Shown here: positions 6,357-17,331 of the stretch, in pieces | Layout: each line of letters starts with the position of its first letter | Numbering within the stretch: position 1 is the first letter of the stretch | IMG/VR virus record: IMGVR_UViG_2778261171_000002 | Length of the DNA stretch: 18,784 bases | Strand: one strand, 5' to 3' | Source of the DNA: a virus | Lineage: Duplodnaviria; Heunggongvirae; Uroviricota; Caudoviricetes | Program-made: the position numbers and the translations under genes | The notes under the pieces: generated by a model | The model's input: only the letters and a program-made list of their open reading frames with translations | What the model was told of the DNA's origin: nothing | Databases searched by the model: none

Positions 6357-6741
6357 TGCTGCCTCCGTGACTCTGCCTACATTCGCCCAGCTCCGTACAC
6401 TCCAGCAGCAGAAAGCGCCGCGCCCCGTTCAGATCACGCTGACGTTTCACCCGGTACACACTGTCATCACAGACCACCTCATAATCAGCAGTGATCCCCC
6501 GGCGGTAACGAATGGTGATGTAATGGGTGATGGCGTCCCCGGTCTGCGCGGTTTCCTGCCAGGTGGTGGCACTGGTCTGGATAACCTTCGCCCATGTCCG
6601 GAACGTAACCGGGTATTGAGACTCCACGCCAAAGTTATCCGCGGGCATATCCACCCGCTGGCGGATCAGGACGCGTTTATTCAGTTCACCGGGGTCCGGC
6701 AGAATGTAGGTTGCGCTGGTCTGCGCCTGACGAATTTTCAT
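6331..6741 (-). CDS. Head closure / head-tail joining protein (136 aa)
   Basis: Position after the gp6-like connector with ATGA-type overlap; size typical of head-tail adaptors. Confidence 0.5.
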   Translation of the reverse strand: MKIRQAQTSATYILPDPGELNKRVLIRQRVDMPADNFGVESQYPVTFRTWAKVIQTSATTWQETAQTGDAITHYITIRYRRGITADYEVVCDDSVYRVKRQRDLNGARRFLLLECTELGECRQSHGGSNGDSLFSR

Positions 6742-10596: not shown

Positions 10597-12330
10597 TTAA
10601 AGCGAGCGGATCCCATAGGACTCAATGTGGTCAGACAACGTGTCTTCTTTCTCGTACAGCATGGCTCTGCCAACCGCCATAATCAGCGCAACTGCACCAT
10701 CGATTTTGTTTTCCGCCTGCTCTTTGACGGGCTTCACCACATCATCGTTACCCGGAATGGTTTTGCCGACCACGTTGCCGATACACCAGGTCATGATGGG
10801 ATTGCCATCATGATGAAAGCGCCCCGATTCAATTGCCGCTTCCAGCTCTTTCATCGGGTCGGACATGTTGGTGTAGTTCTGAATGATAGTGACGGGATTC
10901 AGGTCTTCATCAGCAAGGTCATGTGACAACCCGGTCGCCCCGAAGGGGTCGATGGGTGACTCACTGACCGGGCTGATTTTGTTCGCCGCTTTGGCCTCCT
11001 CGAGGATGTAGCGATAATCCACCTCCGCACCATCGGTAACGGTCAGAACGCCCATTTCCACCCATTTCTGAAAGCGTTCGGCTGTCCGGCGATCTTCATT
11101 TTTCTCGACGCTGTACACCGTGTCATACGGTACCCAGAAGCGCGGAGCCACACTGTAGTAATGCGTTTTACCGTCAATCTCGCGGGTATAAAGTCGCGCC
11201 ATGCTGTTCATATCCAGCTTACGCGCCAGGTCAAAGGCCAGAATGCACGGTTGCCCCTCGAACTGTTCAAGGGTCAGTGATTTATCCTCGCAGCTCTGCC
11301 AGCTCACCAGGTTGAAATACGCCGAACGCGCCGACACCCAGATATTGAGGTGTTTTGTTTTAAAGACGTTTGCCAGACGGGCGTTATTTTTCGCACGCTG
11401 CTGCTGACTTAACAAAAATTCGCGATAAACCGACACGCCAATATTCGGGTTAGCTTTTTCCAGCACCTGCGGGTCGGTCCAGTCATCGCCTTCGTCAACG
11501 GTATAGATGATCCCGAACAGTTCATCGTTGGGTACCGAACCGTTGAGCATCTCGATAACTTCCCGCCGCTTGTCGTAGCACGGCCCCTCAATGTTGTACC
11601 CGGCGGTGGTGATGGCCCACATCAGTGGCTGACGTCGCGCGCCCATCCCGGTAAGCATCGTGGTATAAAGCGCATCGGTGGCGTGCTCGTGATATTCATC
11701 CACCACGGCACAGTGGGGTGATGAACCATCACCGGGGTTACCGATCAGCGGTTCAAACCGCGCGCCATCCTCCGGACGGTTCATGTTTGAGGCGTTAACC
11801 TCAATCCCGAACGCTTCCGTCAGCATGGGTGTGCGTTTACACATCAGTCGCGCCGGGCGAAAGACTTCCCACGCCTGTTTCTCTGTCGTGGCACCGGAAT
11901 ACACTTCCGCGCCAAACTCGTTATCACAGGCAAAACAATACAGGGCAACACCGGCAGAGATTGCCGATTTGCCGTTCTTACGGGGGATTTCGGTATACAC
12001 CTCCCTGAAGCGGCGCAGCCGGGAGCCTTTATTGACCCAGCCAAACGCACAGCAGATCACAAAGAGCTGCCACGGTTCCAGCGTGATGGGCATCCTCTTG
12101 AATGCCCACTCCCCCTTGGTGTGTGGCAACAGCTGAATAAATTTCGCGGCCCGTTCAGCCAGGTCCTTGTCGAAGCGGTAACGAAACGACTTACTTTTTT
12201 CCGCCATCAGGTCATCAAGATGGCGCTGGCAGGCCTGAATCACAAACTGGCAGGCCACAATCTTTCCGCGCACGACATCACGGGCATACTGATTGGCAGC
12301 ATTTACGTTGGGGTAAGATTTCCGGCTCAT
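10597..12330 (-). CDS. Terminase large subunit (577 aa)
   Basis: Walker A-like PRKNGKS motif; size and position downstream of the small subunit with a 4-nt overlap. Confidence 0.9.
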
Positions 12331-12830
12331 GATTCGATGATTTTCAGAAACTGGTTAGTGGCTTTCTTCTGCCCCGCCAGGCCAATCAGACGCTGGCGGC
12401 TGCTGGGGTCGAGTCCGAGCATTGCCCCCGTGCTGCTCATCTCGGACTCCTGTTCTTTCTTGGCGGTCAGCTCCGGATTTTTGACCATGCCACCCATTGC
12501 ACCGGTGATGGTGTTGCCCTGTCTGGCAATATTTTTCACGGCACGCCGCCAGAACTCGTAGGCCACGCACCACCGCTCAAGCACCGCGAGGTCAGTCACG
12601 CACAGCAGGCCCTGACCGCAGAGTTCTTTGGTTGTCAGTTGCCACATGATCGTGGCGAGAGGGAGATCTTCTTCAGCGAACCACTCCGGTGGCTCAACAC
12701 CTTTGATGGGCGTAAAAACAGGTTCATCTTTATTCAGGGCTCGCTTGCCGGGGTTTCCGGCCAGCGCCTTGCGCGCCGTTGGCTTGGGGCGACGCCCGGA
12801 ACGCCCCGCCGTTCCAGCCATATGCGGCAC
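12327..12830 (-). CDS. Terminase small subunit, P27 family (track start GTG; likely ATG start at about 12821)
   Basis: N-terminus [15 protein letters not shown] characteristic of P27-family small terminases; adjacent to HNH and large terminase. Confidence 0.8.
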
Positions 12831-12946: not shown

Positions 12947-13297
12947 TCACTTCAACCGTTCACGGGCCGTCTTCGCCTTATGACACGGCCAGCACAGACT
13001 CTGCAGATTACAGTCGGCATCAGTGCCGCCATGCGCTTTAGGGATGATGTGGTCAACGGTTTTCGCCTCACGTACCACACCACCACGCAGACATAACTGA
13101 CACAGGCCTTTGTCACGCTTCAGTACACGTTCACGGATAGCATCCCATTTCGAACCGTAGCCGCGCTGATGACGGGACTGGCCTGGCTTGTATTGCCTCC
13201 AGCCTTCGCTTTTGTGGCTTTCGCAGTAGCCTGACGGGTCTGTGGTGGTATGGCGGCAGCCACGAACACGGCAGGCTTTTGGGATTCGTGATGGCAT
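12947..13297 (-). CDS. HNH endonuclease (116 aa from ATG at 13297; the track ORF extends to a TTG at 13396)
   Basis: Cys-rich zinc-finger-like N-terminus, HNH core DHIIPKAHGG...N...LCWPCH; GGAG Shine-Dalgarno before the ATG; sits next to the terminase as in HK97-type cos phages. Confidence 0.85.
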   Translation of the reverse strand: MPSRIPKACRVRGCRHTTTDPSGYCESHKSEGWRQYKPGQSRHQRGYGSKWDAIRERVLKRDKGLCQLCLRGGVVREAKTVDHIIPKAHGGTDADCNLQSLCWPCHKAKTARERLK

Positions 13298-13417
13298 ATG
13301 TACTCCAATGAAGAAGCCACCGACATAGCCTCCTCCATTCATCGTGAAACTATTTTCATCTACCCAGTAATGAATTCTTTGTAGAGTTGTGATCAATACA
13401 ACTCACTAATGGAGAGG

Positions 13418-13439
13418 CTTGTCCAACACGTTGGACAAG
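13418..13439. promoter_or_regulatory. 22-bp near-perfect palindrome CTTGTCCAAC-AC-GTTGGACAAG, candidate operator
   Basis: 10-bp perfect inverted arms with a 2-nt spacer in the divergent intergenic region between the HNH gene and the plus-strand small ORF and bor. Confidence 0.4.
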
Positions 13440-13519
13440 TTTCCTGTTTGATTTACTGGACACTATAGAAGGACAGAATGCCTTCATCACTCGAATAACA
13501 TCAATTAAGGAGGTTCAAC

Positions 13520-13642
13520 ATGTTTCATTCCACAAATCATCAGGCTGTAATTATGGCTGCATCAGCTTGTGCCACAGACCTTTTCCGCTTCACTTTGAGC
13601 CTGATTCATTTCTACCTGACCGGCTCGCCTCTATCTTTTTAA
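13520..13642 (+). CDS. Small hypothetical protein (40 aa) with a near-consensus Shine-Dalgarno
   Basis: AAGGAGG 6 nt upstream of ATG; ORF MFHSTNHQAVIMAASACATDLFRFTLSLIHFYLTGSPLSF; same strand as and upstream of bor. Confidence 0.4.
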   Translation: MFHSTNHQAVIMAASACATDLFRFTLSLIHFYLTGSPLSF

Positions 13643-13822
13643 TCCCCGCTTTATCCAAATTGCATTGCCAGAATGCCGACAACAGACTGACATTCAAATC
13701 CTGACTACCTCCAATAGTCTGACCGTACACCTATATAGTTTTAATTTTCATCAATCCATTTAACTATCGTTTAATTGTTGTCACATAGGATTCTGCCGTT
13801 TTTAACAATGCAGGATAATAAG

Positions 13823-14116
13823 ATGAAAAAAATGTTGTTTTCTGCCGCTCTGGCAATGCTTATTACAGGATGTGCTCAACAGACGTTTACTGTTGGAAAC
13901 AAACCGACAGCAGTAACACCAAAGGAAACCATCACCCATCATTTCTTCGTTTCGGGAATTGGACAGGAGAAAACTGTTGATGCAGCCAAAATTTGTGGCG
14001 GCGCAGAAAATGTGGTTAAAACAGAAACCCAGCAAACATTCGTAAATGGATTGCTCGGTTTTATTACTTTAGGCATTTATACTCCGCTGGAAGCGCGGGT
14101 GTATTGCTCACAATAA
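13823..14116 (+). CDS. bor: Bor lipoprotein (97 aa; the track ORF starts upstream at 13775)
   Basis: MKKMLFSAALAMLITGCAQQTF with lipobox LITGC; near-identical in memory to lambda Bor; opposite strand to the lysis genes as in lambda. Confidence 0.9.
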   Translation: MKKMLFSAALAMLITGCAQQTFTVGNKPTAVTPKETITHHFFVSGIGQEKTVDAAKICGGAENVVKTETQQTFVNGLLGFITLGIYTPLEARVYCSQ

Positions 14117-14147
14117 TTGCATGAGTTGCCCATCGATATGGGCAGCG

Positions 14148-14609
14148 CTATCTGCACTGCTCATTAATATACTTCTGGGTTCCTTCCAGTTGTTTTTGCA
14201 TAGTGATCAGCCTCTCTCTGAGGGTGAAATAATCCCGTTCAGCGGTGTCTGCCAGTCGGGGGGAGGCTGCATTATCCACGCCGGAGGCGGTGGTGGCTTC
14301 ACGCACTGACTGACAGACTGCTTTGATGTGCAACCGACGACGACCAGCGGCAACATCATCACGCAGAGCATCATTTTCAGCTTTCGCATCAGCTAACTCC
14401 TTCGTGTATTTTGCATCGAGCGCAGCAACATCACGCTGACGCATCTGCATGTCAGTAATTGTCGAGTTCGCCAGCTTCAGTTCTCTGCCATTTTTGTCGC
14501 GCTGGGCTTTGTAGGTAATGGCGTTATCGCGGTAATGATTAACAGCCCATGACAAGCAAACGATGATGCAGATAACCAGAGCGGAAATAATCGCGGTTAC
14601 TCTGCTCAT
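14148..14609 (-). CDS. Rz: Rz spanin, inner-membrane subunit (153 aa)
   Basis: N-terminal transmembrane segment and coiled-coil body; lambda Rz-like sequence; follows R with a 4-nt overlap. Confidence 0.9.
14207..14389 (-). CDS. Rz1: Rz1 spanin, outer-membrane lipoprotein (60 aa), embedded in Rz in the +1 frame
   Basis: Lipobox VVVGC and proline-rich [15 protein letters not shown]; entirely nested inside Rz. Confidence 0.85.
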
Positions 14610-15082
14610 ACCTCAATCTCTCTGACCGTTCCGCCTGCTTCTTTGAATTTTGCAATCAGGCTGTCAGCCTTATGCTCGAACTGACCATAACCAGCGCCCG
14701 GCAGTGAAGCCCAGATATTGCTGCAACGGTCAATTGCCTGACGAATATCACCGCGATCAATCATCGGTAAAGCGCCACGCTCTTTAATCTGCTGCAATGC
14801 CACAGCGTCCTGGCTTTTCGGAGAGAAGTCTTTCAGGCCAAGCTGCTTACGATAGGAATCCCACCAACGGGAAAGAAGCTGGTAGCGCCCGGCTGCTGTT
14901 GATTTGAGTTTTGGGTTTAGCGTGACAAGTTTGCGAGGGTGATCGGAGTAATCAGTAAATAGCTCTCCGCCTACAATGACGTCATAACCATGATTTCTGG
15001 TTTTCTGCCGTCCGTTATCCGTTCCTTCTGACCATGCCACCATATCGAGGAAAGCCTTACGCTGAGGATTAAGATTTTGCAT
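14606..15082 (-). CDS. R: Endolysin, lambda R-type lytic transglycosylase (158 aa)
   Basis: Sequence [45 protein letters not shown] closely matches lambda R as remembered; ATG start. Confidence 0.9.
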
Positions 15083-15374
15083 TTTTCACCCCTGTCAGTC
15101 GTTCCCAGAAGTACGTCAGTGCAACCGAACCCATCGCACCACTAATCCCCGCTGTCGCGAGAATCATGTAAATACTGAATCCACTTTCGATGCTGATCAG
15201 GCCACCAATAACACCGGTGAATCCTGATACCACTATCTGAGCCAGAGCATTTATCCAACTCCACGTTGCTTTACTCTGCTTCACATCTATCAGGTAGCGG
15301 ACCAGACCGCCCCAACCTGCGATGATCAGCAAAACGAGCCAGAACGCTCCGGCAAGGCTCTCTTTTTCGTGCAT
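15069..15374 (-). CDS. Putative holin (about 101 aa from ATG at 15374; track start is a TTG at 15386)
   Basis: Immediately upstream of and overlapping R; hydrophobic segments; not lambda S-like. Confidence 0.6.
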   Translation of the reverse strand: MHEKESLAGAFWLVLLIIAGWGGLVRYLIDVKQSKATWSWINALAQIVVSGFTGVIGGLISIESGFSIYMILATAGISGAMGSVALTYFWERLTGVKNAKS

Positions 15375-15489
15375 ATGAATAGCCAATATTTCGCCGCCGA
15401 CAAAAGGCCGGGACGTTAAATGTCAGAAATCAGGCTCACGGGGTAATTTAACGACAAAGCACGGAGTTGATGCTCCCCGCAAGCCTGGA

Positions 15490-15695: not shown

Positions 15696-16385
15696 TTAAT
15701 CCATTTTTGCAATACTTTGCTGTGAAAATGTCGTCTTTTGTTTTGAACGTGCTTTCGTTAAAAGCAATAAAGCTTGGCTATCAAGCTGTAGAAAAATGTG
15801 CTTCATTGCAACCCAGCGTTCAGTGAATGTCTCAGACCAGTTTTTTGATGTCACTCCCACCAGTGATGCCAGCTCCTGGTATTCATAGGTCTTACGCCCT
15901 GCCAGCTCGTTCTTCACATCCTGTGCCGCCAGCCAGATCAACTTCTTCAAACGTTCCAGTGTTTTACCTGCAATTTTCCTGGTACCCAACAGAGTCTTAA
16001 ACTCGCTCCATGCCCACTGCGTTATGGTGACCTGATGTTCCCAGCGAACACTTTCGCTGTAACTCCACAGCAACCACGCTTTCTGATGTTCTTCGAGAGA
16101 CAGAACCGCGCGGCGCCATGACGAGGTTGAGAACTCAACCTGGCTGACCAGTGCAATGGATGAACCTTTTGCGTACGACTGCTTACCAGAAATCGGCGGA
16201 TTATCCAGCGTAATCATCCTGCCCGTTACCTCATCCAGAATGCGCGGCTTCTTTCGTTTATATGTACCAGTATCAAATTGTGCATGCTCCAGCCAGGCTT
16301 CAAGCTGGCCTTTCGTTGCTCCGCTCAAATCAGCAGTAGCCACAATGAGTTGCTCGCGGACATACTGTAAATATTGGGTATTCAT
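15696..16385 (-). CDS. Late-gene antiterminator Q (229 aa), assigned by position
   Basis: Located between the nin genes (rusA, ylcG-like) and the lysis cassette, followed by a promoter/terminator-like region; its start overlaps the ylcG-like stop (ATGA). Confidence 0.6.
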   Translation of the reverse strand: MNTQYLQYVREQLIVATADLSGATKGQLEAWLEHAQFDTGTYKRKKPRILDEVTGRMITLDNPPISGKQSYAKGSSIALVSQVEFSTSSWRRAVLSLEEHQKAWLLWSYSESVRWEHQVTITQWAWSEFKTLLGTRKIAGKTLERLKKLIWLAAQDVKNELAGRKTYEYQELASLVGVTSKNWSETFTERWVAMKHIFLQLDSQALLLLTKARSKQKTTFSQQSIAKMD

Positions 16386-16519: not shown

Positions 16520-16881
16520 CATTCATCTCCCAGTTCAGTGATGGTCAGTTCCAGCTTCCCACCTTTGGTAACGGGCATCTTCACAACACGGTAATCAACG
16601 ACCTGAGCATCATCCAGCCAGAAACCTGCTTTGGTGAGTGCGTCAAAAGCGGCTTTTTGCAGATTATCCAGGTCACGGCGACGGCGATCCGGCATGTGGC
16701 ACTCAATACGGATTTTCACTGGCATAGCCAGGCCGATATCCAGCATGGAGCCTTTGATGATTCGGGCGACGTTATCGCGGTATGCCTGCCCTTCTGCGCT
16801 GATGTGTGTGCGCCCGCGATTATGGCGGTAATAGCGATTATTGCTCGGAGGCCAGGGTAATGTGATGCTGTAGGTATTCAC
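16519..16881 (-). CDS. rusA: RusA Holliday-junction resolvase (120 aa)
   Basis: [24 protein letters not shown]... matches E. coli DLP12 RusA as remembered; GTG start overlapping the upstream stop. Confidence 0.9.
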
Positions 16882-17168
16882 GCCTTAATAACCCCCTCTT
16901 TCAGCCAGATAACCTGTGTTCTCGCCATACCTTCCAGCGCGCATTCTTTTGCATACTCAGCATCGACAAAATGTGTGCGGCGGTCGATTTCGTCGTGACA
17001 GGCAGAACATGCGATGGTGGCAATCAGGTCTGGCGGTTTGATACCGGTACCGCACAATCCAGCCAGCCGGATATGTGCCAGTACAGACGTTTCAGAATTG
17101 CCATTACATACGCCAGGGATTCTTACCTGGCATTCCCGACCACGCGCTGCTTTTCTCAAATCAGCCAT
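16878..17168 (-). CDS. YbcO-like protein (Cys-rich, about 96 aa from the internal ATG)
   Basis: Cys-rich motifs ([14 protein letters not shown]); position between ninE and rusA as in DLP12; the track ORF starts further upstream at 17207. Confidence 0.6.
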
Positions 17169-17331
17169 GATTCCTCCTTGCTGCCAGTCGCAACCATTTT
17201 TTATCAACCAGGCTGGCGGTATATCCGAGCAGAGTTGGTATTTCGGATGGCTTCAGCTCAGGTTTACGCTTACGACGATTTGGTACTTTGTAGATGTGTC
17301 CGTTCATGACACGAATAAGCGGTGTAGCCAT
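17161..17331 (-). CDS. ninE: NinE-like protein (56 aa from the internal ATG)
   Basis: Basic small protein with RRKRKP motif; ATG overlaps the ninB stop (TAATG); the track ORF of 77 aa starts upstream. Confidence 0.65.
   Translation of the reverse strand: MATPLIRVMNGHIYKVPNRRKRKPELKPSEIPTLLGYTASLVDKKWLRLAARRNHG

Follow-up and report, generated by a model that had tools for sequence, protein, structure and literature searches.

What does a 40-codon open reading frame (ORF) behind a near-consensus ribosome-binding site, in the intergenic DNA of a lambdoid prophage, encode, and which RNA polymerase would read it? The locus lies in an 18,784-nucleotide stretch of a virus of the Caudoviricetes (IMG/VR record IMGVR_UViG_2778261171_000002; hereafter the window), and its two central elements are:

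13507..13513, plus strand: Shine-Dalgarno (SD) sequence AAGGAGG, 6 nt 5′ of the ATG and kept in all intact copies
13520..13642, plus strand: 40-codon ORF encoding MFHSTNHQAVIMAASACATDLFRFTLSLIHFYLTGSPLSF and then a stop, supported by conservation and substitution pattern and predicted to form a single α-helix

The start signals agree with the preliminary description: AAGGAGG (13507-13513) is separated from the ATG at 13520 by the 6-nt spacer TTCAAC, and the 40 codons that follow lie on the same strand (+) as the bor gene. Two matches to AAGGAGG-N4-9-ATG are present in the window, where shuffled sequences give an expectation of 0.24. The segment is also low in GC, as had been noted, with a GC content of 0.44 for the ORF and 0.40 for the stretch between the HNH endonuclease gene and bor versus 0.52 for the window. 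That the ORF is unannotated is true of RefSeq/PGAP, which has no feature beneath the match in the E. coli genomes listed, but not of other resources: GenBank ON470612 annotates exactly this ORF as hypothetical protein URC10065.1, and a few further database entries for the protein are titled "Uncharacterised protein".

The ORF and the upstream elements described below form a cassette that is present in 631 of 5,426 complete E. coli genomes (11.6%), where RefSeq leaves it unannotated, and the ORF family comprises 25 protein clusters in a collection of 5.8 billion proteins. Complete copies encode 40 amino acids in E. coli and Shigella and 38 in Klebsiella; none of the complete homologous copies recovered (about 92 copies in 24 distinct nucleotide versions) has lost the SD, the ATG, or the length of 40 codons. 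Among GTDB species-representative genomes, the 20-mer spanning SD and ATG gave only five chance matches in unrelated taxa, and the exact E. coli form was not seen there beyond E. coli and Shigella. In Shigella phage SfIV and in temperate phages of Klebsiella the ORF module also adjoins the spanin gene Rz1, with which the lysis cassette ends; the ORF is convergent with Rz1 there and runs into its 3′ end. In the window, the corresponding neighborhood is a mosaic:

12947..13297, minus strand: HNH endonuclease gene (Pfam HNH, RefSeq), the next late gene and the left boundary of the cassette's intergenic region
13590..13730, minus strand: remnant of the 3′-terminal part of an o-spanin gene of the SfIV type (Rz1/LysC), from alignment to SfIV, in which Rz1 ends at the homologous position
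13708..13822, no strand assigned: start of the lambda-type bor module, with a mosaic junction near 13708, which should hold bor's own upstream region
13823..14116, plus strand: bor/iss lipoprotein gene (Pfam Lambda_Bor, E 6e-31; iss in RefSeq), outside the cassette

The Rz1 relic is cut off by the bor-Rz-R module and lies antisense to the final 17 codons of the ORF; one GenBank record miscalls it a "DUF4347 fragment". A minus-strand ORF at 13356-13490 (44 amino acids, GTG start) was considered as a gene and rejected: SfIV retains the open frame but with differences at roughly one residue in four, and an SD is lacking. The ORF under study had been placed upstream of bor, and in a functional sense this is not supported, as homology to the bor module starts only at about 13708, 66 nt past the ORF stop. 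Lambda, 434, 21, and related phages match the window only from about 13704/13708 to 13823 (query positions 308/312-427), and bor itself starts at 13823, not 13824. The two modules also occur separately, the ORF without bor in SfIV and Klebsiella phages and bor without the ORF in lambda, 434, and 21. Among plasmids the cassette was found in only three records, so the iss region of ColV plasmids is without it.

Within 126 bases 5′ of the ATG, all on the ORF strand, lie two predicted promoters, P1 and P2, separated by a terminator-like hairpin:

13394..13416, plus strand: P1, predicted promoter for a T7-group (BA14/Berlinvirus-type) RNA polymerase, CAATACAACTCACTAATGGAGAG from −17 to +6, predicted +1 at G13411
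13414..13443, plus strand: hairpin followed by a T-rich tract, with the perfect palindrome CTTGTCCAACACGTTGGACAAG at 13418-13439 and a 13-pair stem in a terminator scan
13451..13473, plus strand: P2, predicted promoter for an SP6-group (K1E/ACG-C91, Vectrevirus-type) RNA polymerase, ATTTACTGGACACTATAGAAGGA, predicted +1 at G13468
13468..13485, plus strand: predicted 5′-terminal hairpin of the P2 transcript (GAAGGACAGAAUGCCUUC), then an unstructured 52-nt leader

By its sequence, P1 is an instance of the 23-bp consensus (−17 to +6) of T7-group promoters of the BA14/Berlinvirus type. Scored with a matrix built from 16 annotated BA14 promoters, most of which themselves score 22-36 bits, P1 reaches 26.3 bits; no other site in the window exceeds 8.5, and the highest score among 30 shuffles is 14.6. 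Its 19-mer from −17 to +2 (CAATACAACTCACTAATGG) is identical to promoter copies that occur two to five times per ~39-kb T7-like phage contig, the BA14 relative Yersinia phage PYPS50 being one phage that carries such copies, and the GGAG with which P1 starts is found also in BA14 phi1.5 and phi1.6. P2, read in the same way, is an instance of the SP6-group (K1E/ACG-C91) consensus of about 21-23 bp (−17 to +4/+6) and no other site in the window comes within three mismatches of the SP6 promoter (0 expected). With 36.4 bits it falls in the range of phage ACG-C91's own promoters (30-38 bits), and its 21-mer is identical at 21 of 21 positions to the commonest ACG-C91 promoter, of which that genome holds four exact copies, including those before the major capsid and tailspike genes. 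In IMG/VR the P2 20-mer is confined to this prophage cassette and to K1E-like phages, which have up to four copies per ~44-kb contig. In the K1E-like phages this promoter type is repeated on one strand 5′ of genes, and ACG-C91 encodes an RNA polymerase.

The hairpin between the promoters has a fold energy of −18.6 kcal/mol (z = −3.25), and the palindrome GTCTCACAYGTGAGAC is also found 5′ of three promoters in ACG-C91. We consider it a terminator-like insulator and/or the 5′ stem-loop of the P1 transcript; judging by its position directly after the P1 +1, some P1 transcripts might end there. In the predicted fold of the P2 transcript nothing but the 5′ hairpin is stable and the SD stays unpaired, and the layout of the leader resembles that of phage capsid-gene leaders (GAAGGGAG..CTCCC..TAAGGAGGTT..ATG).

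The preliminary description had the ORF expressed together with bor in the lysogen. A crude consensus scan of both strands from 13250 to 14200, which could miss a weak promoter, found none of the σ70 type; the only promoters found upstream of the ORF are of the types used by single-subunit RNA polymerases of virulent phages, and behind P1 stands the terminator-like hairpin. Co-expression with bor in the lysogen is not supported, and we regard a lysogen small protein made from a host promoter as quite unlikely. In its favor, the ORF shares the strand of bor and stands 180 nt before it, its SD is strong, its surroundings are low in GC and resemble a moron, and so crude a scan may overlook a weak host promoter; against it, the module is independent of bor, RefSeq has no gene there, and exact phage-polymerase promoters would be left unexplained. 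Co-transcription of bor with the ORF would occur only by read-through of a phage polymerase from P1 or P2 during infection.

Cassettes elsewhere carry other promoters in the same arrangement. P2 is of the SP6 type in SfIV-type cassettes, with a T at −3 that is absent from the promoter copies of SP6-like phages, and a third E. coli P2 allele (ATTTAATGGACACTATAGAGGG) had no cognate multi-copy phage in IMG/VR or INPHARED. In Klebsiella temperate phages the same gene, at the same place, lies downstream of a T7-group promoter of the Przondovirus type, which is present in 10-13 copies per genome in Klebsiella phages. Klebsiella cassettes also carry the promoter of Klebsiella SP6-like phages (three to five copies per ~45-kb contig), and copies of a candidate third promoter (AATGTTACACGAGTAGGA) were found in prophages only. 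The promoter types of the cassettes vary in step with the phages of the host genus. Separately, 213 E. coli genomes have exact promoters of the T7, K11, and Przondovirus types on an unrelated tRNA-Gly island.

Could the arrangement be a scar, in which promoter-bearing DNA of a virulent phage was captured by illegitimate recombination and has no function, the ORF being a chance frame that Rz1 on the opposite strand keeps open? Lambdoid phages have mosaic genomes, the 17 C-terminal codons lie opposite conserved coding sequence of Rz1, and certain promoter alleles seem imperfect; in some strains, the ORF has been lost through an IS element or truncation. However, the same ordered architecture recurs in two genera with promoter sequences that differ and are appropriate to the host. 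Between the hairpin alleles CCAAC/GTTGG and CTCAC/GTGAG there are two double changes, both compensatory. Tandem duplicates that lack the ORF have lesions in P1, hairpin, P2, SD, and ATG, whereas the adjacent complete copy retains all of them, and joint decay of all elements is seen only in such redundant duplicates. With the ORF frame more constrained than the Rz1 frame (see below) and the cassette present in 11.6% of complete E. coli genomes, we consider a mere scar very improbable.

By its substitution pattern the peptide falls into an N-terminal half that varies and a C-terminal half with a motif (LSLIHFYLTGSPLSF) that is almost invariant across homologues and has evolved mainly by synonymous change. 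In codons 21-40 we counted 10 synonymous versus 3 nonsynonymous changes (26% synonymous expected). Purifying selection was not seen in codons 2-20, which have 52 nonsynonymous and 7 synonymous changes and are as variable as the non-coding flank. The C-terminal conservation is partly confounded by the antisense coding sequence of Rz1. In lineages where Rz1 is only a relic, the ratio of synonymous to nonsynonymous changes in this half is 5:2, and across the Rz1 overlap each of six pairwise comparisons shows mostly synonymous changes when read in the ORF frame and mostly nonsynonymous ones when read as Rz1. Klebsiella versions carry AAGGAG or AAAGGAGG 5′ of the ATG and are otherwise unrelated in nucleotide sequence. 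The strong SD, the intact length of 38-40 amino acids in E. coli, Shigella, and Klebsiella phages, and the mostly synonymous changes in the C-terminal half indicate that the ORF very probably encodes a real small protein, as the preliminary description had supposed, and is a conserved gene of the lambdoid prophage.

The same data bear on whether the RNA rather than the peptide is the product, the transcript from P1 or P2 acting as antisense to Rz1, Rz, endolysin, and holin (here running through bor), or the invader's polymerase being titrated or derailed, with the ORF incidental. In SfIV and the Klebsiella phages such a transcript necessarily runs antisense into the lysis genes, and the N-terminal half of the ORF is free of purifying selection. 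Against this, SD, ATG, and a length of 38-40 codons are kept across genera despite unrelated N-terminal nucleotide sequences, the bias toward synonymous change holds in the ORF frame even against the Rz1 frame, the cassette was not lost when its downstream target was exchanged for bor, and a single-copy promoter is a poor sink for a polymerase. We accordingly give an RNA product little credence.

The peptide itself is predicted by AlphaFold2 to be helical over residues 2-34 (pLDDT 83.5). Its best 17-residue Kyte-Doolittle window averages 1.0-1.4 for the E. coli peptides and 1.5-2.1 for those of Klebsiella; on the same measure reference toxins range from 1.85 (LdrD) to 3.2 (Hok), so that the upper Klebsiella values overlap the low end of the toxin set. 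The earlier restraint about a toxin or membrane function remains apt for a peptide of such moderate hydrophobicity, and we offer a membrane-toxin mechanism only as a proposal because the E. coli peptides are only moderately hydrophobic. Searches of Pfam, PHROGs, PADLOC, and NCBIfam with four family members gave no significant match, one Klebsiella peptide having chance-level matches only (a PHROG of unknown function, E 0.019; MscL, E 0.15), and Rfam identified no family in the whole window. An antisense RNA antitoxin was likewise not detected, either as an Rfam family or as a host-type promoter on the opposite strand in the consensus scan. A tblastn search with the peptide against 50,697 phage records returned only the homologous temperate phages and none of the T7-like or SP6-like phages, so the payload was not copied from such phages.

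Taken as a whole, the arrangement reads to us as a natural "pET-like" cassette, a silent gene for a helical peptide that would be read by an invader's polymerase. The explanation we favor, at slightly better than even, is a self-contained cassette that carries the ORF as its payload, stays silent in the lysogen, and is read by the single-subunit RNA polymerase that an invading virulent podophage brings. The ORF would then probably be switched on by attack of a T7-like or SP6-like phage rather than expressed with bor in the resting lysogen. In the lysogen, the hairpin and T-tract after P1 would block read-through by the host polymerase, the hairpin doubling as the 5′ stem-loop of the P1 transcript. 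Once a BA14-like or K1E-like invader made its polymerase, P1 or P2 on the prophage would fire, and transcription by the phage enzyme could flood the cell with the 40-amino-acid helical peptide, which might harm the infection or the infected cell by damaging the membrane, triggering lysis prematurely, or blocking a phage function. The outcome would be exclusion or abortive infection, the most likely purpose of the cassette as we read its sequence, and sister lysogens would be protected. T7-like phages degrade host DNA, which would leave only a short time for expression from the cassette.

The same promoters would equally serve a peptide that benefits the temperate phage, through early holin or lysis triggering when an induced cell is superinfected, or through altered lysis timing. 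Such a role fits the constant position of the ORF, which in phages of all three genera (E. coli, Shigella, and Klebsiella) converges on Rz1 and overlaps its 3′ end. That position may, however, reflect mere common descent, and the lineage of the window has swapped Rz1 for a lambda-type Rz-bor module with the cassette still intact, which argues against a specific partnership with that Rz1. We judge this role unlikely.

We see an even chance that a "promoter trap" is carried by temperate prophages in E. coli, Shigella, and Klebsiella: a host-insulated array that mimics the promoters of local virulent T7-like and SP6-like phages and is wired to a tiny effector peptide, so that the response would be set off by the invader's polymerase. 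Alleles would be swapped between cassettes, following polymerase specificities, and would include the BA14, K1E, and SP6 types in E. coli and the Przondovirus, K11-like, T3-like, and Klebsiella-SP6-like types in Klebsiella. The trap is possibly general because the unrelated tRNA-Gly island also has exact phage promoters.

A search of the openly searchable full-text literature (by concept, promoter strings, and SfIV) returned no prior description of the cassette, and the SfIV genome paper mentions neither SP6-type promoters nor this ORF (PMC3851460). If the proposal is true, the sensing principle is one so far undescribed for bacterial immunity and possibly general: Autographiviridae would be detected through their own polymerase transcribing a resident gene, which is direct, hard to evade, and needs no protein sensor. 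Phage therapy directed at E. coli K1 and Klebsiella makes much use of these phages, and under the proposal an unannotated element of 250 bp, found in roughly one of every nine complete E. coli genomes, should confer resistance that differs between strains. The proposal would also explain the exact, "laboratory-looking" phage promoters in natural chromosomes, and the locus yields a new candidate small-protein family and a source of natural, orthogonal promoter and insulator parts. Size cut-offs and σ70-centered annotation would hide functional units of this kind in the intergenic DNA of prophages.

Each of several known systems shares part of this design. With T7 and SP6 phages and pET/pGEM-type cassettes the locus shares its order of parts (promoter, 5′ stem-loop leader, gene-10-type ribosome-binding site, ORF), and with the late genes of ACG-C91 a P2 identical to the capsid and tailspike promoters, a 5′ hairpin, and an SD of the TAAGGAGGTT type. 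In contrast to these, its home is a temperate prophage of lambdoid/HK97-like type without a gene for such a polymerase, and it combines the promoters of two polymerase families to drive a putative peptide of 40 amino acids. Like the lambdoid morons bor and lom, it is inserted between late genes but oriented against them, is low in GC, and brings transcription signals of its own. Morons, however, are expressed in the lysogen from promoters of the host type, whereas the cassette has only promoters for foreign phage polymerases and an upstream terminator-like hairpin. Exclusion or abortive infection through small peptides is exemplified by the exclusion of T4 by hok/sok, by lambda RexAB, and by type I toxins, with which the locus has in common a short, helical, partly hydrophobic peptide on a mobile element and a proposed failure of the virulent phage. 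It differs from type I toxins in that no antisense antitoxin or host promoter was detected, in its lower hydrophobicity and lack of a family match, and in its proposed trigger, which is transcription by the invader and not antitoxin decay. Engineered suicide cassettes follow the same logic of a silent lethal or inhibitory gene expressed only with transcription machinery that the invader supplies; Djordjevic, Klaenhammer, and colleagues reportedly built one in Lactococcus in 1997 by fusing a phage-inducible promoter to a lethal gene. The present cassette is natural, uses promoters of single-subunit phage polymerases, and has a payload that is only putatively inhibitory. Finally, the integrated virophage mavirus and phage satellites (P4, PICI, PLE) are activated by transcription factors of the virus that they exploit, so that there, as proposed here, promoters or operators of a resident mobile element respond to the invader's transcription system. 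Those elements mobilize and package themselves and present a site for an activator, whereas here a one-gene cassette in an ordinary prophage would mimic the promoter of the polymerase itself.

The prophage that makes up the window is lambdoid and has packaging genes of the HK97 type; the neighborhood of the 40-codon ORF is laid out as follows:

12327-12830, minus strand, small terminase gene (late), followed by the large terminase, portal and head genes
12947-13297, minus strand, HNH endonuclease gene (late)
13590-13730, minus strand, truncated Rz1/LysC relic (3' end of an SfIV-type o-spanin gene), from the SfIV alignment
13823-14116, plus strand, bor/iss
14148-14609, minus strand, Rz (late)
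14606-15082, minus strand, endolysin gene (late)
15069-15386, minus strand, holin gene (late)
15696-16385, minus strand, Q (late)

Lambda, 434, 21 and their relatives begin to match the window only at about 13708, and 13397-13709 aligns with 86% identity to Shigella phage SfIV, which is without bor and carries the homologous DNA between its HNH gene and its lysis cassette. Because 13590-13709 corresponds in SfIV to the final (3') part of Rz1, an o-spanin gene on the opposite strand, 13590-13730 of the window was assigned as a truncated Rz1 relic (labelled "DUF4347 fragment" in GenBank ON470607); the relic is overlapped in antisense by the final 17 codons of the ORF. Judged from these alignments, the relic is a leftover from the displacement of the original lysis genes by a lambda-type R-Rz-bor block, with a mosaic junction near 13708, and the ORF lies outside the bor module.

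Coordinates and GC counts bore out the preliminary description of the ORF itself. A Shine-Dalgarno (SD) sequence, AAGGAGG, at 13507-13513 (plus strand) is separated by a 6-nt spacer from the ATG at 13520, which opens 40 codons closed by TAA at 13640-13642, in a segment with a GC content of 0.40-0.44 versus 0.52 for the window. AAGGAGG followed by ATG after 4-9 nt occurs twice in the window, where 0.24 occurrences are expected. The only other one, at 17166-17179 (minus strand), presumably marks where the gene entered as ORF 16878-17207 (minus strand) truly starts; the ORF list begins that gene at a TTG farther upstream. The ORF had been called unannotated, which holds for RefSeq, where hundreds of E. 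coli genomes with the same DNA have no annotation at it, but not for one GenBank phage record, where it is entered as a hypothetical protein.

The SD, the ATG and the 40 codons are kept in all complete copies, whether these came from IMG/VR, from phages in GenBank or from the chromosomes of E. coli. Among 5.8 billion proteins, the search returned only 25 clusters, of 38 or 40 aa throughout bar a few longer mis-started calls; those with a source name came from E. coli or Klebsiella and were labelled "Uncharacterised" or "hypothetical protein". In the Klebsiella temperate phages Kp4864-1 and Kp4856-1, nucleotide similarity to the window is absent left of the Rz1 stop, and a strong SD and an ATG precede a 38-codon ORF that reaches into the antisense of the last Rz1 codons. 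All versions end in the motif F(T/L)LSL(I/A)H(F/Y)YLTG(S/Y)PLSF. The peptide is predicted by AlphaFold2 to form a single helix (residues 2-34, pLDDT 83.5), its hydropathy is moderate (higher in the Klebsiella versions), and no Pfam, PHROG, PADLOC or NCBIfam model matched it.

A minimum spanning tree of the unique cassettes served for counting substitutions, a cassette being the ORF with its SD and the upstream promoters and hairpin. The C-terminal half has 10 synonymous (stop-to-stop included) and 3 nonsynonymous changes, with 26% expected to be synonymous, and 5 versus 2 where Rz1 is only a relic. The N-terminal half, with 7 synonymous versus 52 nonsynonymous changes, falls into two alleles, deeply diverged and recombining with the promoter types, and is either unconstrained or diversifying. 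When the window, SfIV and both Klebsiella phages were compared in pairs across the 54-nt overlap of ORF and Rz1, most changes in each of the six comparisons were synonymous when read in the ORF frame and nonsynonymous when read in that of Rz1; the ORF is therefore the more constrained frame. The conserved SD and ATG, fixed length and frame-specific constraint argue against two alternatives, namely that the region is a recombination scar without function, or that it acts only as RNA through antisense transcription into the lysis genes. In our assessment, the ORF is very probably a genuine gene.

In the SfIV alignment, conservation is highest in a block upstream of the ATG. This block holds ATTTACTGGACACTATAGAAGG, which differs from the laboratory SP6 promoter at three positions (the SfIV allele differs at one), and a second promoter-like site lies upstream of it:

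13394-13416, plus strand, P1, T7-group (BA14-type) promoter CAATACAACTCACTAATGGAGAG, +1 at G13411, 26.3 bits, 57 nt upstream of P2
13451-13473, plus strand, P2, SP6-group (K1E/ACG-C91-type) promoter, +1 at G13468, 36.4 bits

When IMG/VR was scanned with the P2 20-mer of the window, the only matches were prophage copies of the cassette and contigs of about 44 kb with up to four copies each on a single strand. The latter are SP6-like coliphages of the K1E/ACG-C91 type (Autographiviridae, Molineuxvirinae, Vectrevirus), phages that have an RNA polymerase gene of their own; in phage ACG-C91, a P2-identical 21-mer precedes gp35, gp33, the major capsid gene and a gene block with the tailspike last. 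On a matrix built from ten ACG-C91 promoters, P2 scored 36.4 bits versus 30-38 for that phage's own promoters and 11.6 for the second-best site of the window. The P1 pattern ATAC[G/A]ACTCACTAATGG occurs in 2-5 copies per T7-like contig of about 39 kb, for example Yersinia phage PYPS50 (90.6% identity to coliphage BA14; Studiervirinae, Berlinvirus), and some copies share CAATACAACTCACTAATGG of P1 exactly. On a matrix built from the 16 annotated BA14 promoters, P1 scored 26.3 bits versus mostly 22-36 for BA14's own, 8.5 for the runner-up in the window and at most 14.6 for shuffles.

Between P1 and P2 there is a perfect palindrome, CTTGTCCAACACGTTGGACAAG (13418-13439). With its flanks it forms a hairpin of 13 pairs (-18.6 kcal/mol, z = -3.25), and a T-rich tract comes next, which makes the element terminator-like. 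Other cassette alleles have CTTGTCTCACACGTGAGACAAG, in which two base pairs are altered on both sides and pairing is kept. One allele has in this position the palindrome GTCTCACAYGTGAGAC, which in ACG-C91 lies just upstream of three promoters (about 6505-6525, 6690-6710 and 15125-15145) as a candidate host-polymerase terminator or binding site. In the predicted P2 transcript, a short hairpin, GAAGGACAGAAUGCCUUC, stands at the 5' end and the SD is left unpaired, the same layout as in phage capsid-gene leaders. No sigma-70 promoter was predicted across 13250-14200, and an Rfam search gave no match. An antisense 44-codon GTG-start ORF across both promoters and the hairpin (13356-13490, minus strand) has no SD and is probably no gene; its frame is open in SfIV too (43 codons), with about a quarter of the residues changed.

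The ORF had been proposed to be co-expressed with bor in the lysogen. The independence of the module from bor, the lack of a predicted host promoter and the terminator-like hairpin upstream all speak against this. The preliminary interpretation is partly supported: the gene is probably real, and the regulation and bor partnership are probably wrong.

Cassette promoter alleles differ at specificity positions. At -12 to -10 of P2, the window has CTG (K1E-type), SfIV and relatives have GGT (SP6-type) and a third type has ATG, for which no known phage counterpart was found; the SP6-type 20-mer occurs in several copies in SP6-like phages, invariably with TATAG where the cassette has TTTAG. Klebsiella cassettes carry Klebsiella-phage promoters at the corresponding positions, in the order T7-group promoter, same hairpin, then AATAGTGGCGAGTATAGAA, which is present in 3-5 copies per contig of about 45 kb of Klebsiella SP6-like podophages. 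The T7-group promoter is Przondovirus-type, TAATTAGGTAGCACTATAGGGAGG (10-13 sites per genome; 288 Klebsiella phage records), and K11-like or T3-like variants replace it in other Klebsiella prophages. Kp4856-1 likewise has a perfect 5' hairpin after the promoter, then the SD and the ATG. Further conserved blocks, TTTAATGTTACACGAGTAGGAACAG and GTTACACAATAGAA, lie between the SP6-like promoter and the SD in Klebsiella prophage loci (L209 560-640, L213, L217, L219 and others) and look promoter-like; no multi-copy phage counterpart of either was found.

In some E. coli prophages (IMG/VR contigs L028, L036, L070 and L182), the cassette is duplicated in tandem and a 5' fragment from the HNH region is repeated with it. 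Of the two copies, the first, which lacks the ORF, is mutated in P1, hairpin (broken), P2 (GACAGTATAGGGGGG), SD (ACGGAGC) and ATG (gone); the adjoining complete copy keeps all five. In strain ETEC1738 (L248 about 1620, NZ_CP122768), the start codon is the exact insertion point of an IS4-family element (ISVsa5/IS10-like, end CTGATGAATCCCC), and both promoters and the SD are intact. Elsewhere, one cassette copy is broken just past +4 of P2 (L055) and another has its left boundary within the hairpin (L011). In our assessment, P1 and P2 are very probably genuine phage-polymerase promoters.

This anatomy is most simply read as that of a cassette, silent and insulated, which would be expressed solely by a T7-group or SP6-group phage polymerase. 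The full explanation, a phage-polymerase-triggered cassette with a peptide payload, is in our assessment somewhat probable. Its outcome would most likely be exclusion or abortive infection via the peptide, since the cassette is prophage-borne, its promoter types track host-specific virulent phages and it would otherwise be off; a part in timing the lysis of the temperate phage itself is an alternative.

A promoter with the exact T7 consensus, TAATACGACTCACTATAGGGAGA, occurs in 213 of 5,426 complete E. coli genomes. It lies on a small island, unrelated to the cassette, that adjoins a tRNA-Gly gene; an integrase comes first on the island, followed by a DUF4145 protein, the promoters and finally KilA-N or hypothetical genes. 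Two examples, with no annotation beneath the promoters, are:

L249 2501-2526, T7 promoter island, NZ_CP050036 878897-878922
L250 2470-3050, T7 promoter island, NZ_CP024815 about 1662600-1663190

In the L250 strain, exact promoters of the K11 and Przondovirus types form a tandem array with the T7 promoter, and AT-rich ACTTAAAG repeats come next. The island could be a T7-like phage satellite or another promoter trap, and mobile elements may thus carry phage-polymerase promoter arrays more widely.

The full-text literature covered (mostly other than subscription papers) gave no account of the ORF gene or of phage-polymerase promoters in the cassette prophages, and the SfIV genome paper mentions neither (PMC3851460). 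The parts of the cassette, phage promoters, terminator and small ORF, are of known kinds; as a natural prophage device it appears new, with an earlier description possible, and it is both unusual and testable. In two E. coli prophages (L245 and L246, 1125-1319, minus strand), an additional 64-aa hypothetical gene is annotated between HNH and the cassette. The layout of the cassette follows the same logic as a pET vector, of which it would be a natural counterpart resident in a prophage, and its trigger logic is analogous to that of engineered triggered-suicide cassettes, satellites and the virophage mavirus.
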